A stretch of DNA of 64,000 nucleotides from assembly GCA_049517315.1 (NCBI GenBank), contig JBEKSE010000002.1, positions 17,202 to 81,201 on the forward strand, given 5' to 3'. How positions within the stretch are numbered: the stretch's first letter is position 1; each line of letters begins with the position of its first letter. Origin of the DNA: Terracidiphilus sp. (lineage in GTDB: Bacteria > Acidobacteriota > Terriglobia > Terriglobales > Acidobacteriaceae). Of the stretch, positions 10,924 to 54,634 are shown piece by piece. The notes beneath the pieces are model-generated. The model was given only the letters and a program-made list of their open reading frames with translations, was not told the DNA's origin and did not search any database. The translations under genes were made by a program, and so were the position numbers.

Positions 10924-11220
10924 GAATCATGCCTCCCAGGCCAAGACGAGTTTACTCTTCACCGGCTTCGCCACGCGTCAGGTCGAAGAACTCGCAGGGC
11001 AATTGAGCGACCCAGAAAGTCGGCGGAGTTAACAAGTCAAGGAGTCGTCGAAAAAGCTCCCGAGGCGATCCTTTGGAGCCTCTTTTTGGGCAAAGAGCGG
11101 GTCTTTCCGGTGATTTTCAGAGGCCAAATCTCATGATGCGGGAGAGTATTGCCTGTGAGACTTTCAGGAAGTGTTGATTTCAAACAGGTTATAAATTACC
11201 CGCAAGCGTTCAAGGGAAAT

Positions 11221-11292
11221 TTATACCCCCTGGGGGTATAGGGGGGTAGGGGGTCAGGTCAGGGGTACGGACCGGGCGGATGTCCGACATAT
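11221..11292. repeat. G-rich dispersed element, copy 1
   Basis: Palindrome TATACCCCC-T-GGGGGTATA and G-tracts, then 31 nt (11262-11292) matching 63269-63299 at 28/31. Confidence 0.65.
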
Positions 11293-11544
11293 TGGACCAG
11301 GGACGGACTGGCCCGCCCGAAAGGCTGGACTGAGCTCAAGGTAGCAGAATACGGGAAATAATCAGCAAGAGCTGTTCCAGATGAAGAATTCGGCAATATA
11401 TAGATGTTTTCGGCGTTTGGTCAAAGGGATGACCAGTATTCCCCTCCTTTATGGAGATGGAAATGTGGCAAAATGGCAGAATCGAAACTGGATGCAACGC
11501 AGAATGAATAATTTACCGATTATTTACCGCCGTTGGACAATCCG

Positions 11545-11553
11545 TGGTACACT
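11545..11553 (+). promoter_or_regulatory. Candidate extended -10 promoter (TGGTACACT) for the cold-shock gene
   Basis: TGn plus TAnnnT; would give a ~100-nt structured 5' UTR, as is typical of csp genes. Confidence 0.45.
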
Positions 11554-11663
11554 CTATTCAATCGTAGAATTCGATCTGAAGTTTTTGCCTGTTTCGGTTA
11601 CCGCCTACTCGCAAACTTCCACATTGCGTTCGCGGTAAATCAGTATCGAAGGAGTAGCACACA

Positions 11664-11864
11664 ATGGAAACAGGTACAGTGAAGTGGTTTAACGACGCCA
11701 AGGGTTTTGGATTTTTGAGCCGCGAAAACGGCGAAGATGTCTTTGTTCATCACACCGCCATCCAGTCGAACGGCTTCCGTTCACTGCAAGAGGGCCAACG
11801 CGTTCAGTTCAACGTGACCAAGGGTCCCAAGGGCTGGCAGGCTGAGAACGTCCAGGTTGTCTAA
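11664..11864 (+). CDS. Cold-shock protein (CspA family)
   Basis: [14 protein letters not shown] (RNP1), DVFVHHTAI (RNP2); 66 aa; GAAGGAG SD. Confidence 0.98.
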
Positions 11865-11899
11865 GGGTAACCACCCTTCCAACCGGTTCGGAATCAAAG

Positions 11900-11930
11900 A
11901 GAAAGGGACGGCGCCATGCCGTCCCTTTCT
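11900..11930 (+). terminator. Intrinsic terminator after the csp gene
   Basis: Perfect 13-bp stem AGAAAGGGACGGC/GCCGTCCCTTTCT with a 5-nt loop; the stem ends in a U-rich run. Confidence 0.85.
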
Positions 11931-11982
11931 TGCGTTTGGAGTGATTTTTCCGCCCGACCCAGAGCGATAATAATTTGCAATT

Positions 11983-12339
11983 ATGGACGATTTCCCGGAA
12001 TTCATGAAACATCCTGCAAACAGGATCGCTGGGTCAAGCCAGGCGACTCCAGGCGTTGAGGGTTATGTCTTCGACGGCAGAGACGGAAGCCAGATGGCGT
12101 TTTGGACCTGCAGTGAAACTGCGTCATCGGCGGCGCATGTCCACGATTACGACGAATACATGCTCGTTGTGCAGGGTTGCTATACCTTGATCGTCAATGA
12201 TGAGCGGATTCCGGTGAAGGCCGGAGAGGAATATCTTATTCCGCGTGGTGTACAGCATAGCGGCGAAGTTCTTGCCGGGACCAGAACGATCCACGCATTT
12301 GGCGGTCACCGGGCCGACCGGACTCAGGACTCCCTCTGA
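11983..12339 (+). CDS. Cupin domain protein
   Basis: HVHDYDEYMLVVQG and IPRGVQH cupin motifs. Confidence 0.85.
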   Translation: MDDFPEFMKHPANRIAGSSQATPGVEGYVFDGRDGSQMAFWTCSETASSAAHVHDYDEYMLVVQGCYTLIVNDERIPVKAGEEYLIPRGVQHSGEVLAGTRTIHAFGGHRADRTQDSL

Positions 12340-12755
12340 CGCTGCTTTTCTATGCGGCAGGCTTGAGGCTCTTGACGCTCACTTGAGGAACGGCGGGGTG
12401 AAGATTTTCCCTAAGGGTGACGTGGGTGCCTAAATATTGCAGCACATCGTTAATTGAATCTTCAAAACGCGAGCCTGTCTTGTGGGTAGCTTTGACGCCT
12501 TTGGAGACCAATTGGCAAACTTCAAAGCGGTTCATTCCTTGCGCGAGCGCGCGATGTATCTTGTCGGAACGCATGACGTTACTCCGAAAAACAGGTGAGA
12601 GTTGCGTGTGGTGCGGACTCGTCAGGAACGGTAGGATGGCAAGAGCCGAAGAGGCTTTTCCAATTCGAAGGCCGGATCTGATGATTCAAATCTATTCTTA
12701 TTGTACGCTGGAACTGCATTTCCCCCGAGTTTCCCGGCCGAAACTGGAGGAGCGG

Positions 12756-23847: not shown

Positions 23848-24453
23848 CTAAATCCAGCCGCGCACGGCATAGTAGGCAATTTTGATGGATTCCTCCATCA
23901 TGGTTTCAAAGGCGGAGAAGCGGCCGTTCCAGTGTTCGGTAGAGTGAAGCACATCGGGAACTGCCATGGGCGTGACTTCAATGCCCAGCTTGCGAAAGAC
24001 GCGAAGCGCCCTGTACATATGAAAGTCGCTGGTGAGCAGAATTTTCTTGCCGGGCATGCCCTGGATCAGTCGAGCCGTCTCGATTCCGTTTTCGCGGGTG
24101 CTTTTGGATGGCCACTCGGCTACGACGGCTTCGCGGGGAATGCCTTCAGAGAGCAGGAAGTTGAGGATGCCAGGGCCTCCGCCGCCGCTGATCACAATCT
24201 TTTTGAAGCCTCCTGTTTGCCACGCAAAAATCGCTTCGCGCGCACGCCAATAAGAGGAATAGGAGATGCCGCCCATATCGTCTCCCGCCGCGCTGAGGAG
24301 GATGAGCACATCGCCTCGTGGCCGCTCGATGGGACCGGCGTAGGTTCGCGCCCACCACGAAACGACCGGTGTGGCGATCACCAACACGGTGATCAGTCCG
24401 ATGGCCGCTAGCGCGCGTCTGAGCCAAACGCCAGCTCTAAGAAGTGCTCTCAT
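23848..24453 (-). CDS. YdcF/DUF218 family protein
   Basis: N-terminal TM; ISGGG, STRENG, LLTSDFHMYRA. Confidence 0.88.
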   Translation of the reverse strand: MRALLRAGVWLRRALAAIGLITVLVIATPVVSWWARTYAGPIERPRGDVLILLSAAGDDMGGISYSSYWRAREAIFAWQTGGFKKIVISGGGGPGILNFLLSEGIPREAVVAEWPSKSTRENGIETARLIQGMPGKKILLTSDFHMYRALRVFRKLGIEVTPMAVPDVLHSTEHWNGRFSAFETMMEESIKIAYYAVRGWI

Positions 24454-50008: not shown

Positions 50009-51256
50009 TTACTTCTTCAAGTTGATATCCCGCGGAGAGTAGGCGACGCCGAATCCGACCACCTGCGACAGCCCGTTGACAATATTTGCCGAGAGCCCGG
50101 CGTTCGATGACTGCTGAATTGCCGTGTAATTTGCAAACACCGTGAAGTATCTGCCAAATCGCCGCGTAGCCGACACCTCTCCAAGCTCCGTGTTCGTTGC
50201 GACGGTTTCATCGAGCTGCAGTGCCAGGCCCTGGGTGCGCATGTACGAGCCCGTTGCGCTGACGGTCCATCTCCTTCCGAACAGTTGCGTGATCGCTCCG
50301 GAGACATCGTCGTTGTGTATGGCAACCTCAGTTGCCTCCCCGGCGCCTCCGGTAACTCCCCTGATATAGCTGACCGTTGCCGTCGTTGAGGTCCTTAGGG
50401 CGTAGGTCGCATTCGCATTGGCAGTGAGACTCGTCGACGGAGGAACGAGTGGGTTGTTAGAGGTCTGTACCCACTCCGGCCCAGCCGAAACGCTCGTCTT
50501 GAACTGCCTGTTCCATGTGCGAAGGTAGCCAAACAGCGCGGATTGTGTGTCCATGGTCAGCTGGGGGTACGCTGGATAGCTGAATTCCCCATAAATGTAC
50601 TGGCCGAAAAGTGAATTCCGCGCGTCCAGCCGCCTGGTCATTTGTCCGTTCGCCTGCACCGAATCGGTAGCCAGTCCAATCCCATCCGGAAACCTGAGGA
50701 TCGAGTATCTGCCGCCGAGATCAAGGCTTGTTGCATGGCCGATAGTGTGCGTGAAATCCGGACCGACGGTGTTAGAAACGCTTCTCAGGTTTTGTGTCAG
50801 AATCGGCTGGGTCGGGTAGCCCGGCTCGCCCGGCAGGGTGCCCACGCCAATGATTCCCGAAAATCCAGTGACTGGCGCTTGAGGCATGTAGCTCGCTTCA
50901 TCCATCAGCTTCAGCGACCAGTCGCGCCTGACTAACCCTTCTGAAACCAACATGTGCTGGAACACCCCGGTTTCATTTGGCGGGCCGGATATGGTCCAGC
51001 TATCGCCGCCGGTATAGACCAGGGCAAGGGGATGCACTGCGCTTGTATTTGCGTAGGCCAACTCTCCGGAAGCTACGCCCATCTGCTCTGTGTATCCGTC
51101 GTAGAACTGCGCGGTCTGCGTGTAGCGCAAATCGTAGTGAAGGGTCCCGCTGATCGGCAGCCGGTAGTAAGGACCTTCAATCGAGGGTACAACCTGCGCT
51201 CCTGCCGCGGAGCTAACAACGAAGAAAATTGCCCAGAGTGTGCTGCTTGCTTTCAT
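50009..51256 (-). CDS. Outer-membrane beta-barrel protein (EPS export-associated)
   Basis: Signal peptide; alternating hydrophobic/aromatic strand pattern; located between the OPX and co-polymerase genes. Confidence 0.7.
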   Translation of the reverse strand: MKASSTLWAIFFVVSSAAGAQVVPSIEGPYYRLPISGTLHYDLRYTQTAQFYDGYTEQMGVASGELAYANTSAVHPLALVYTGGDSWTISGPPNETGVFQHMLVSEGLVRRDWSLKLMDEASYMPQAPVTGFSGIIGVGTLPGEPGYPTQPILTQNLRSVSNTVGPDFTHTIGHATSLDLGGRYSILRFPDGIGLATDSVQANGQMTRRLDARNSLFGQYIYGEFSYPAYPQLTMDTQSALFGYLRTWNRQFKTSVSAGPEWVQTSNNPLVPPSTSLTANANATYALRTSTTATVSYIRGVTGGAGEATEVAIHNDDVSGAITQLFGRRWTVSATGSYMRTQGLALQLDETVATNTELGEVSATRRFGRYFTVFANYTAIQQSSNAGLSANIVNGLSQVVGFGVAYSPRDINLKK

Positions 51257-51265
51257 TTGGCACCC

Positions 51266-51853
51266 CTACGGTACAACAATCGTATCGCCCGGATTCAAAT
51301 CGAGATTGAGTGAGATGTCGCCCTTCAACGCTCGCTTGTATTGCATGGGAATCTTCTTTTCTTTCCCGTCATCAATGCGCAAAATATAAATCCTCTTTGA
51401 GTTGGCGAACTGCGTGAGTCCGCCGGCGGTGGCAATTGCCTGAAGGAAGGTCATGCCGGGAGTCATTTCCTCCGGCCCGGGTTTTGCAACTTCGCCGAGC
51501 AGGTAAATCTTCTTGCTGTTCACCTGGGCCAGGACAACCGTGACATTAGGATCCTGAATGAACTTCTTGAGCATGACCGTAATTTCGTCGGCCAACTGCT
51601 GCGTTGTCCTTCCGGCAGCCCTGACATCGCCGAGAAGAGGCATCGAAATCATTCCGTCAGGCCGGACGAGCAAACTGCTCGACAAGGTTGGCTCTTTGAA
51701 TACGGTTACGGTGATATTGTCGGACGCGCCGATGATGTAGCTTTCGGGCACAGCCGACTTGGCCGCGTCTTTTGCAGCAGGCATTTTGTCCTGAGCGGGG
51801 CAGAATAGTGCCGGAAAAAGAACTGCCGCCGCGAGAAGGCTTCCAGATTTCAT
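51266..51853 (-). CDS. Short polysaccharide export (OPX/Wza-like) protein
   Basis: YIIGASD, VRPDGMISMPLLG, IYLLGEV, LNPGDTIVVP; only 195 aa with no C-terminal helix. Confidence 0.9.
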   Translation of the reverse strand: MKSGSLLAAAVLFPALFCPAQDKMPAAKDAAKSAVPESYIIGASDNITVTVFKEPTLSSSLLVRPDGMISMPLLGDVRAAGRTTQQLADEITVMLKKFIQDPNVTVVLAQVNSKKIYLLGEVAKPGPEEMTPGMTFLQAIATAGGLTQFANSKRIYILRIDDGKEKKIPMQYKRALKGDISLNLDLNPGDTIVVP

Positions 51854-52785
51854 TGTGCGACTCCGTTCCTGCAGAACGCGGAGTGGTTTTCCGCTTCGAT
51901 CTGCTTGAGTTTGTAAAGCAAGGCCTTATAGCTGATTCCCAAATCGGCCGCTGCGCGCTTCCGATTGCCGCCGGTGGAAATCAGAACCTCTGAGATCAAC
52001 TGGCGTTCGAGCTGGATCGAGGAGGCCCGCGTGGCTTCCTTCAACAGCAAATGCCTGCGATTTTCATTCGGCCGGCCAGATTGCGCCGCCGCGTTGATGG
52101 CCGCGAGAGAAATTGCCTGGTCTCCGATGGCCACGAATGTCTTGATTGCGGTTTGAAGTTCAGACAGATTGCCGGGCCACCTATGCTCCATCAGGTGACC
52201 GATGATTTCCTTGCAGAGAACCGGCTTGGGGCGGTCAAACTGTTTGGAGTACTGCGCCAAAAGCTCATCGGCAATGGGAAGAATCTCCGACTTACGGCAG
52301 CGTAGCGGGGGAACCTGGAGCGTCACGGCTGAGATGAAGTAGTAGAAATCCTCTCTCAGGCGCCATGACTTCACTTCTCTTGGCAGGTCGCGGCTTGAAC
52401 CAAACAAGAGACGGCAGGTTTGCACCTGCTCGGAGCGAAAATACGAGTTGACGATCAGCTCTTGCATGGAAAGGCTAAGGTCCGTTATTTCAGAAAGATA
52501 CACCGTGCCGGGAGTTGATAGCGCAGCCTGCAGGGCCTGCGCGTCCGCATCAAAGCAACGAATCTCCTGAAAAGCGTTGCGGGATAGATGCGATTGTGCG
52601 TGGATCTGCGCGGCAACAAACCGCTTCCCGGCGCCGCGCTCGCCCAGAATCAAGACAGGGCAATCGGTTTCGGCAATCCGGGCGATCGCGTTTTGAGCGC
52701 GCGTCTCGGAAGCATGGGCGGCTCTCGCCTGCCTTTTTCCATTGTGGATCATTGCAATTGTTGCCATTTGGGGACCAAACTTCAC
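51850..52785 (-). CDS. Degenerate sigma54-interaction (bEBP-like) regulator with Fis-type HTH
   Basis: PVLILGERGAGK, WPGN, GGNRKRAAADLGISYKALLYKLK; no GAFTGA, no receiver domain. Alternative start at 52767. Confidence 0.8.
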   Translation of the reverse strand: MKFGPQMATIAMIHNGKRQARAAHASETRAQNAIARIAETDCPVLILGERGAGKRFVAAQIHAQSHLSRNAFQEIRCFDADAQALQAALSTPGTVYLSEITDLSLSMQELIVNSYFRSEQVQTCRLLFGSSRDLPREVKSWRLREDFYYFISAVTLQVPPLRCRKSEILPIADELLAQYSKQFDRPKPVLCKEIIGHLMEHRWPGNLSELQTAIKTFVAIGDQAISLAAINAAAQSGRPNENRRHLLLKEATRASSIQLERQLISEVLISTGGNRKRAAADLGISYKALLYKLKQIEAENHSAFCRNGVAQ

Positions 52786-52951
52786 GTCGTCTTTTCAACG
52801 CAGGTTCCAAACCTGACTGTGGAATACGCGGAATATACTGCAATTGCAGGGTATGGGCTTGGGGGAGGGGAAACGCTCTCTTGGACAACGCTGACCAAGG
52901 GGGTGGAATCGTTCCCTCCTATAGGAAAACAGTGTACCATTAATTGTCTTG

Positions 52952-52977
52952 GATAGTGGAACTCATTTTCCACTATC
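52952..52977. promoter_or_regulatory. Perfect inverted repeat, candidate operator in the divergent promoter
   Basis: GATAGTGGAA-N6-TTCCACTATC (10-bp arms). Confidence 0.55.
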
Positions 52978-53108
52978 GCCGGAAGACGGATTCCCAATTG
53001 AGAGGGAGTTCATAGGGGCATTTCCCTGAATCGAAACGTTTTGTTTTCGGCCCCCGATTGCGTAATGTAAGGGTGGTACGGACCCTGTCAGGCTCAAGGA
53101 CGAGGAAA

Positions 53109-53996
53109 ATGGCTCAAGGCGTACAGACTTCAACGGCTCCCCCGTGGAACTGGCGATCGAGCCATGCCCAATTTGCGATTGGCGCGGCAGTGATATGCCT
53201 GCTGATCGCGGCGGTTTATTACAGGGTGCTCGGCAAACTGGTCGCCGACTGGTGGAATATACCGGACTTCTCCCACGGATTTCTGGTGCCCTTGTTCGCC
53301 GCATATCTTGTGTGGGAAAAGAGAGAGACCCTGCGCGGTATAAAACTCGCGCCTTCCTGGGGCGGAATTGCCGTAATGGTTCTTGGGCTGGTCGTGCTCG
53401 CTCTTGGCGTTTACGGATCAGACCTTTTTCTCTCGCGATTCTCACTGGTCATTTTGTTGGCAGGAGTGGTTCTGTGCTTTGGCGGACGGCAGTTCTTGAA
53501 GGAGCTCCGCTTCCCCTTGCTGGTCCTGTTGCTGGCCATACCGATTCCTGCCATCATCTTCAACCAGATCACTTTCCCACTCCAGATCCTTGCTTCCAAG
53601 CTTGCCAGCGGCCTGCTTCCTTTATTCGGCGTGCCCGTTCTGCGGGAGGGCAACGTCATCGAACTTCCCGCGATGAAGCTTGAGGTAGCGGAGGCCTGCA
53701 GCGGCATCCGTTCCCTGATGAGCCTGTTCACGCTGGCGGTTTTTTATGGATACTTCCTGGAGAAGTCCAATTTGCGGCGAACAGTGCTCGCAGTGGCAAG
53801 CATTCCGATCGCGATTGCCGCCAACGCAGTGCGCATTCTCGGCACCGGACTCTGCGTTCAATATTGGGACCCGGACAAAGCTATGGGCTTTTTTCACGAA
53901 TTCTCAGGCTGGGTGGTCTTCCTGGTTTCCCTGACATTTTTGTATCTTGTTCATCGCGCGATGAGCCTCATCCCGGGCAAAAGGCGGCAGATATGA
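53109..53996 (+). CDS. Exosortase (EpsH/Xrt family)
   Basis: DFSHG, VAEACSGIRSL (Cys), ANAVRI (Arg), FHEFSG (His); multi-TM; ATG 53109 behind GAGGA. Confidence 0.95.
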   Translation: MAQGVQTSTAPPWNWRSSHAQFAIGAAVICLLIAAVYYRVLGKLVADWWNIPDFSHGFLVPLFAAYLVWEKRETLRGIKLAPSWGGIAVMVLGLVVLALGVYGSDLFLSRFSLVILLAGVVLCFGGRQFLKELRFPLLVLLLAIPIPAIIFNQITFPLQILASKLASGLLPLFGVPVLREGNVIELPAMKLEVAEACSGIRSLMSLFTLAVFYGYFLEKSNLRRTVLAVASIPIAIAANAVRILGTGLCVQYWDPDKAMGFFHEFSGWVVFLVSLTFLYLVHRAMSLIPGKRRQI

Positions 53997-54634
53997 AGAA
54001 TCTTCGTTTTTGGACTGCGGTTCTGCTGCTTGCAGGAACGGCATTTTTGCTGCATACGCGCTCGAGCACAGATCGGAATCCTTTTAGTGAGCCGTTGGCG
54101 CAGTTGCCTAGCAATATCGATGGATGGACGGGAAGCGACCAGGAAATCGATCAAGATACGCTCGATGTTCTTGGAGCCGGCGACTTTCTTTCGCGCATTT
54201 ATTCACACGACGCGCAAACGGCGCCAATTGGCCTCTTCATCGGTTATTTTCCCACGCAGAGAACTGGCCAATCCATCCATTCTCCAAAGCATTGCCTGCC
54301 AGGCGCTGGATGGGTTTTTGAGTCGTCGGACTACGTCGATTTGGTCGATGTGAACGGCAAGCCGCATCGCTTGGGCGAATATATCATTAGCAACGGCGCG
54401 GCCAGGCAGTTTGTAATCTACTGGTACCAGGCGCACGGACGCAGCATAGCAAATGAATACACGGCAAAGTTTTATTTGATCGCGGATGCAATGCGGTTGA
54501 ATCGCACGGATGGGGCGCTGGTCCGAGTGATCACGCCGATTGTTCCCAACGAAGAGGTATCGGCGGCAAGAAAGCGCGCCGAGGAGTTCACTATGCGGCT
54601 TGCTCCCCTGCTGCCGCGATTTATTCCCGACTAA
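53993..54634 (+). CDS. epsI: EpsI family protein
   Basis: IHSPKHCLPGAGW, YWYQAHG, DGALVR; ATGA overlap with the exosortase. Confidence 0.92.
   Translation: MKNLRFWTAVLLLAGTAFLLHTRSSTDRNPFSEPLAQLPSNIDGWTGSDQEIDQDTLDVLGAGDFLSRIYSHDAQTAPIGLFIGYFPTQRTGQSIHSPKHCLPGAGWVFESSDYVDLVDVNGKPHRLGEYIISNGAARQFVIYWYQAHGRSIANEYTAKFYLIADAMRLNRTDGALVRVITPIVPNEEVSAARKRAEEFTMRLAPLLPRFIPD

Follow-up and report, generated by a model that had tools for sequence, protein, structure and literature searches.

The regulator gene considered here, which we call REG together with its protein, lies in a stretch of 64,000 nucleotides of Terracidiphilus sp. DNA (the window) between a divergent exosortase gene and a polysaccharide export gene, and encodes a homologue of the bacterial enhancer-binding proteins (bEBPs or EBPs). 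Sequence comparison supports the prediction that REG is a conserved pseudo-ATPase that makes no contact with sigma-54, and is not a pseudogene. We further propose, with about even confidence, that REG functions as a DNA-binding regulator and has its origin in a sigma-54 activator. Our proposal for how it acts, on which we judge the case to be evenly balanced, is that REG works without ATPase activity, by occupying enhancer sites, and that having once been the partner or antagonist of an activator it now acts alone and independently of sigma-54.

The open reading frame (ORF) of REG, 51850 to 52785 on the minus strand, was confirmed and would give 311 amino acids if read from the GTG at 52785. 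Since 72 of the 120 closest database homologs have 305 amino acids and start with MATIA, the ATG at 52767 is the most likely start.

51850 to 52767, minus strand: REG gene, 305 amino acids, comprising AAA+ core, lid and Fis-type helix-turn-helix (HTH); alternative GTG start at 52785.

Pfam identifies Sigma54_activ_2 (residues 29-161), AAA_lid_14 (162-242) and the Fis-type HTH_8 (258-295, E=1.5e-10), and no sensor or receiver domain N-terminal to the AAA+ core, where about 22 poorly conserved residues have a predicted local distance difference test score (pLDDT) below 50 and a ratio of nonsynonymous to synonymous substitution rates (dN/dS) of 0.32. The sigma-54 interaction domain of the bEBP AAA+ proteins is recognisable in REG by profile, with PF14532 scoring 73.9 bits and PF00158 61.9 bits, the latter in two separate stretches. 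As modelled with AlphaFold (pLDDT 75), the fold is that of a bEBP AAA+ domain plus HTH, and its best matches in the PDB are ZraR, NtrX (an atypical EBP), FlrC, NtrC1, PspF and VpsR.

Alignments of REG with ZraR, NifA and NtrC1 using phmmer break exactly at the position of the GAFTGA loop. A pairwise alignment with the canonical activator of a relative contains a 21-residue gap, equivalent to FGYEPGAFTGAIKSKPGKFEICNN, the L1 loop, as well as a second gap of 9 residues in the pre-sensor-I (L2) insertion of REG. GAFTGA is present in none of 121 family members, and in the AlphaFold model helix 76-84 leads directly to the Walker B strand, with no hairpin. The affected elements are listed below, those for Walker B, the arginine finger and sensor II having been read straight from the DNA.

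52510 to 52554, minus strand: short linker FDADAQALQAALSTP, which stands for the GAFTGA/L1 segment of about 36 residues, a net loss of 21 amino acids.
52621 to 52644, minus strand: Walker A, GERGAGKR, with G..GK invariant in the family and Arg after the Lys, as opposed to Glu (GKE) in canonical proteins.
52486 to 52509, minus strand: Walker B, GTVYLSEI, with Asp replaced by Ser (V/A/I/S/T at this position in the family) and the Glu kept.
52333 to 52356, minus strand: arginine-finger region, REDFYYFI, with the first Arg kept and the second replaced by Phe.
52156 to 52179, minus strand: sensor II, WPGNLSEL, with Arg replaced by Ser.

The three catalytic positions are variable over the 121 sequences (V/A/I/S/T, L/F/H/Y and T/S/P/M/A), while the residues that flank them are invariant, as are Walker A G..GK-R, Glu99 and Ser130; this conserved, non-catalytic pocket suggests that REG binds a ligand. 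The original prediction, made from the window alone, had read the GAFTGA loop as deleted, Walker B as YLSEI (Asp to Ser), the arginine-finger region as YYFI and sensor II as WPGNLSEL, in a protein with no receiver or sensor domain and an intact Fis-type HTH, and all of these readings are borne out by the alignments, the DNA and the Pfam matches above. Its view of REG as a pseudo-ATPase likewise holds as a prediction, given a dN/dS of 0.16 and the deletion of both sigma-54-contacting loops.

That dN/dS value, calculated against the window sequence, falls among those of the neighbouring genes (0.13-0.23) and far from the value near 1 which, as had been pointed out beforehand, would mark a decaying gene. 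Divided by domain, the ratio falls from 0.17 in the AAA+ core to 0.11 in the lid and 0.09 in the HTH. Database proteins that match REG number about 1,600 (the top 120 at 71-99% identity), and a relative is encoded in 180 species-level genomes, the frame being intact in about 180 species. Synteny was assessed in 80 loci, all from Terracidiphilus or Acidobacteriaceae metagenome-assembled genomes (MAGs), and here the export gene directly follows REG in 79 of 80, and in 73 the exosortase gene lies upstream and divergent. The gene order XRT / REG, export, ..., ATPase holds in 79 of the 80 and in all ten loci of ten other Acidobacteriaceae genera, at 38-46% identity; the REG homologs of those genera lack GAFTGA too, yet many retain the arginine finger and the sensor II Arg, which indicates that degeneration of the ATP site has been progressive and has gone furthest in Terracidiphilus. 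At the 38-46% similarity level the family is found only in the Acidobacteriaceae (12 of 62 genera; 5 of 301 genomes sampled over the phylum), and a wider set of EBP-like proteins of about 300 amino acids, lacking both REC and GAFTGA, extends down to 32% identity.

The genomes behind 30 Terracidiphilus loci were searched for a canonical activator, which was found in 19 as a REC-AAA+-HTH protein of about 500 amino acids with GAFTGA and the Walker B DE intact, often on the same contig as REG and 12-27 kb away. Its recognition helix in these 19 relatives is ISYKALLYKIKQ (ISYKALLYK), and DLQISYKALLYKIKQYNL is essentially the same as DLGISYKALLYKLKQIE of REG.

51901 to 52014, minus strand: REG HTH_8 DNA-binding domain, recognition helix DLGISYKALLYKLKQ, the same as that of the relatives' activator (DLQISYKALLYKIKQ); dN/dS 0.09.

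In the loci of three other genera an activator that has GAFTGA and the helix ISY(R/K)ALLYKI lies no more than 7 kb from REG, and in a syntenic relative the activator is at the far end of the exopolysaccharide (EPS) cluster, just past homologues of window positions 23851-24453. In the relative G073 (L152/L153, contig C1:65997-68523), where it marks the far end of the EPS cluster, the activator adjoins a second, divergent bEBP gene; with no histidine kinase encoded in the flanking ORFs scanned around it, it may be an orphan response regulator.

It had been suggested that REG replaces the PrsK/PrsR pair. The part of this that stands is that the window's own genome has neither PrsK nor PrsR above the family cut-offs: REG itself scores 111.4 bits against the PrsR model (TIGR02915; cut-off 502.6) and has no REC domain, the relatives' activator reaches 332 bits against the same curated cut-off, and PrsR occurs in 1 of 61 genera of the family. 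The replacement itself does not stand, because most relatives hold REG together with a helix-matched canonical activator and an intact sigma-54 promoter. These comparisons would instead make REG a paralog or partner of the activator, and only in the window's clade has REG been left by itself.

We aligned 68 intergenic regions between the exosortase gene and REG. In the relatives a -24/-12 promoter, TGGAAsCnGCATTGCT, faces REG 43-45 nt before its ATG, and a second, CGGCAyTCCGATTGCT (GG-N10-GC), faces the exosortase gene; these divergent sigma-54 promoters are both kept in 52 of the 68 loci. Between them, at fixed positions, lie GGAA-N6-TTCC palindromes, of which there are 2.18 perfect copies per region compared to 0.004 in shuffled sequences. 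The other genera have a textbook TGGCAC-N5-TTGC promoter upstream of REG (for example TGGCACAAGCCGTGCA and TGGCACTCGCCTTGCA) and, upstream of that promoter, a GGnAAA-N-TTTTCC palindrome. The corresponding elements in the window are as follows.

52952 to 52977: perfect palindrome GATAGTGGAA-N6-TTCCACTATC, with its GGAA-N6-TTCC core at 52958-52971; a candidate binding site, conserved more strongly than any other intergenic element.
52981 to 52994: second GGAA-N6-TTCC palindrome, 23 bp from the first.
52926 to 52946, minus strand: invariant block TAATGGTACACTGTTTT, between the palindromes and the REG promoter.
52795 to 52809, minus strand: decayed sigma-54 promoter facing REG, TGGAACCTGCGTTGA, window type TGGAAC...TTGA, with the -12 GC now GA.
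53048 to 53062, plus strand: sigma-54 promoter towards the exosortase gene, decayed, CGGCCCCCGATTGCG, spaced GG-N9-GC as opposed to GG-N10-GC in relatives.

Of the intergenic blocks in the six closest loci the two palindromes vary least, and their distance upstream of the decayed exosortase promoter is about 55-105 bp. The block TAATGGTACACTGTTTT, given in the sense of the REG strand, is invariant in the same six loci and recognisable in all 68; it could be the site of a DNA-bending protein. In the window's genome the stringent form TGGAA-N6-TTCCA is clearly clustered between genes at this locus only, and of five other stringent matches examined four are inside long ORFs and one, at C3:84473, may be intergenic. 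A regulon reaching beyond the locus was considered and rejected, as both the palindromes and clear -24/-12 sites are missing from the genome's eight PEP-CTERM genes and four of the five stray palindromes are inside long ORFs. Over the whole window -24/-12 matches are no commoner than in shuffled sequences, so that the local sigma-54 promoter signal consists of positional conservation over loci only. One sigma-54-like sequence, TGGAACAGCTCTTGCT, is found at 11364-11379 on the minus strand, within 1.5 kb (10924-12416) devoid of ORFs of at least 150 amino acids. The leader has no Rfam match to a riboswitch or other structured element, and its fold z-score is -0.5.

In a tree of REG sequences the window belongs to a clade of 12 species in which no locus has both promoters, although every locus of this decayed clade retains at least one perfect palindrome. 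Of 19 activator-positive genomes 18 have both promoters intact, compared to 1 of 12 activator-negative genomes (Fisher p 1.6e-6, for events that are not independent). The window's assembly is 100% complete and includes rpoN and about ten other bEBPs, and it has no GAFTGA activator with the helix of REG, that helix being carried only by REG and by a protein encoded on contig C52; nor was any activator remnant detected in the window by tblastn. Inside the activator-less clade the dN/dS of REG is 0.155, at a median dS of 0.67. The prediction that REG is independent of sigma-54 is thus supported for the lineage of the window, where both local -24/-12 promoters have decayed; in most relatives REG lies behind an intact sigma-54 promoter.

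The C52 protein belongs to a second exosortase locus (C52:5144-14553) with exosortase, deacetylase-like, FemAB-like and PrsT-like TPR genes; it is a REC-AAA-HTH protein of 526 amino acids that has lost GAFTGA too (GCEKKDTSAPARTK), has FLEEI at Walker B and has the helix VSYRSVLYKIEQ. The genome also encodes, at about C61:467-1420 on the minus strand, an EBP-like protein of 318 amino acids that lacks REC and GAFTGA (GEHGVGKQ ... WPGNVREL) and, at C13:26811-27563 and C28:39770-40510, both on the plus strand, two GAFTGA-positive bEBPs with no HTH.

In most relatives, then, the palindromes would constitute the enhancer of two divergent sigma-54 promoters, from one of which REG is transcribed. We propose that the Fis-type helix of REG binds the GGAA-N6-TTCC palindromes between the xrtA-epsI-prsT and REG-export operons, and that REG could regulate both through occupancy and oligomerisation, without remodelling RNA polymerase. 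In the relatives REG would share the enhancer with the activator or compete for it, tuning the output and most likely limiting it, and since REG is there expressed from an activator-dependent promoter the arrangement would form an autoregulatory feedback loop. In the window REG would act alone on sigma-54-independent promoters, in the manner of the atypical EBPs NtrX, TyrR and VpsR, and may be modulated by a ligand in its non-catalytic nucleotide pocket. More tentatively, and somewhat below even confidence, we suggest that in a clade of a single genus a sigma-54 enhancer circuit has become a sigma-54-independent circuit under a loop-less, ATPase-dead paralog that inherited the enhancer boxes, and that the locus may show this change of sigma factor while it is still under way. 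We lean towards a net negative, autoregulatory role for REG, and regard a positive role like that of VpsR as a serious rival.

Several points weigh against the proposal of a DNA-binding regulator that took over the enhancer of a lost activator. The assignment of the palindromes to REG is drawn from their co-conservation, and the C52 protein, having a similar helix, could perhaps bind the same sites. The loss of the activator and the decay of the promoters amount essentially to one evolutionary event, with two or three independent contrasts, and most of the relatives are incomplete MAGs. In addition, a scan of the window's intergenic region for sigma-70-type promoters gave one weak, non-conserved match and none that is convincing.

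Among the alternatives, the one that survives best, although we consider it rather unlikely, is that REG is a positive regulator which, possibly loaded with a ligand, recruits or isomerises RNA polymerase containing the housekeeping sigma factor at the exosortase and export operons. There is a precedent in VpsR, an EBP with no GAFTGA and no ATPase activity whose activation of EPS genes involves sigma-70 and c-di-GMP (PMC6158489), and the retention of REG where the sigma-54 activator is gone implies that something must still drive the locus. The invariant Walker A G..GK-R and the position of the palindromes relative to the decayed exosortase promoter would also suit such a role. However, the intergenic scan recognised no sigma-70-type promoter, and VpsR has a REC domain where REG has none. 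The FleQ-type c-di-GMP motifs that were tested are also absent from REG: after Walker A the KExxxRN of FleQ reads KRFVAAQ, and LFRS is missing. As the leader has no c-di-GMP riboswitch either, the earlier suggestion that REG senses c-di-GMP finds no support.

An idea that we regard as improbable is that REG is the DNA-tethering subunit of a mixed ring, formed at the enhancer with HTH-less GAFTGA bEBPs or with the activator of the relatives. Such a ring would resemble HrpR/HrpS. Candidate partners are present in the two HTH-less proteins encoded on C13 and C28, and purifying selection acts on both the AAA+ core and the lid of REG, but with both sigma-54 promoters of the window decayed a sigma-54-remodelling ring would have no target there, and PspF makes contact with the transcription complex through several L1 loops, contributed by different subunits (PMC3467059). 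It also seems doubtful that REG is purely a decoy or anti-activator, which only titrates the enhancer or poisons the hexamer of the canonical activator. REG and the activator do have a recognition helix and sites in common, and the relatives do transcribe REG from an activator-dependent promoter; against this, REG and the palindromes are kept, under the selection described above, in a clade that has no activator, and since a pure antagonist should have decayed once the activator it opposed was gone, its survival there makes this unlikely. Finally, that REG is a decaying, functionless remnant of a bEBP, as its lost catalytic motifs and deleted loops might suggest, is scarcely credible for a gene with the dN/dS of its neighbours, an intact frame in about 180 species, an invariant HTH and conserved synteny, and a decaying pseudogene is ruled out by dN/dS and synteny.

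The genes adjoining REG in its locus are as follows.

51266 to 51853, minus strand: polysaccharide export gene of the XrtA system (Poly_export plus SLBB), translationally coupled to REG.
53109 to 53996, plus strand: exosortase XrtA gene, divergent from REG and followed by epsI and prsT; start at ATG 53109 by conservation.
53993, plus strand: ATG that is probably the EpsI start, overlapping the exosortase stop codon.

REG ends in a stop codon that shares an overlap of 4 bp with the ATG of the export gene (ATGA, 51850-51853), for which reason the original prediction was right to place REG at the head of the EPS export operon. On the same strand there follow a 415-amino-acid protein, a chain-length determinant, an ATPase, a tyrosine autokinase, a priming glycosyltransferase and more glycosyltransferases. 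The 415-amino-acid secreted protein (50009-51256, minus strand) has no match in Pfam or NCBIfam and is kept in 76 of 80 loci, with the export gene on one side and the chain-length determinant on the other; from its position we guess that it belongs to the export machinery as an outer-membrane component. Exosortase XrtA, EpsI and PrsT are encoded divergently from REG, 342 bp away. The starts given by the ORF program for 53058-53996 and 53864-54634 (both on the plus strand) are too early, conservation placing that of the exosortase at ATG 53109.

Atypical EBPs are already known, as is the control of exosortase loci by sigma-54. In the literature searched we found no description of a family that has no sensor domain, has lost both loops and forms a constant part of the acidobacterial XrtA locus, of the pairing of such a family with a helix-identical activator at a common enhancer, or of a clade that keeps only the dead paralog and the boxes. 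VpsR, TyrR and NtrX are known as isolated cases, whereas the REG family offers a natural comparative series in one genus, in which some species have the activator, the dead paralog and sigma-54 promoters and others only the dead paralog and the enhancer boxes. Two questions are thereby made testable, namely what role a loop-less EBP has at a shared enhancer and how a regulon moves off sigma-54, and if the circuit of this clade did pass from sigma-54 to REG, 'dead' EBP paralogs would be pre-adapted stepping stones to atypical EBPs such as VpsR and NtrX. REG and its operator are likely to be a locus-specific regulatory system for exosortase-linked EPS in the Acidobacteriaceae, a family that is abundant in soil and peat and whose EPS regulation is undescribed in the literature searched.

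With regard to known systems, one of the closest is the PrsK/PrsR/PrsT system of PEP-CTERM proteins, in which sigma-54 promoters with upstream enhancer boxes are found at PEP-CTERM genes (Haft 2006, PMC1569441). The REG locus resembles it in being an exosortase/EPS locus with PrsT (343 bits, cut-off 312) and an enhancer layout, and PrsR, like REG, is an NtrC-family protein with a Fis-type HTH. However, REG has neither REC nor GAFTGA, there is no PrsK, the genome's own PEP-CTERM genes lack the cis elements of the REG locus, and the local EBP-like protein here is predicted to be unable to contact sigma-54. FleQ of Pseudomonas aeruginosa, another member of the bEBP family, also regulates EPS genes, can do so by occupancy and is subject to modulation at the AAA+ domain, but it possesses GAFTGA and ATPase activity and binds c-di-GMP through LFRS, KExxxRN and ExxxR; REG has KRFVAAQ in place of KExxxRN and no LFRS. 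PspF, which is among the PDB matches of REG, and HrpR/HrpS share with it the combination of AAA+ and HTH with no regulatory domain, although they are active ATPases with GAFTGA present.

REG agrees with the atypical EBPs (VpsR, NtrX, TyrR, HupR, PhhR and HsfA) in its EBP homology, altered GAFTGA and retained DNA-binding domain, but these proteins carry an N-terminal sensor or receiver domain and REG does not. Atypical EBPs act at promoters that lack -24/-12 elements; both local sites have decayed in the window, and both are intact in 52 of 68 loci in relatives. TyrR of E. coli, which with NtrX belongs to the atypical EBPs acting as repressors or dual regulators, has an ACT/PAS sensor domain at its N-terminus. 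The models for NtrX, PgtA and TyrR are the only ones in NCBIfam that align in a single stretch over the L1 region of REG, and NtrX of Brucella abortus, which acts as a repressor, is the second-best fold match. However, NtrX has an N-terminal REC domain and binds ATP, with crystal structures containing ATP and ADP (5m7n, 5m7p), and neither NtrX nor TyrR is tied to an exosortase locus, unlike REG. A functional parallel may be VpsR of Vibrio cholerae, in which GAFTGA is absent, Walker B is non-catalytic, ATPase activity is lacking and an EPS locus is controlled without sigma-54 (PMC6158489). VpsR has a Fis-type HTH and an EPS locus in common with REG and is a PDB match to it in both sequence and fold (7v2b), but it has REC, a full-length L1 region and c-di-GMP binding, whereas REG is sensor-less with L1 and L2 deleted. 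Moreover, in contrast to VpsR, the REG of relatives sits behind a sigma-54 promoter with a real activator alongside, and for this reason the role of a modulator fits REG better than that of a second activator.

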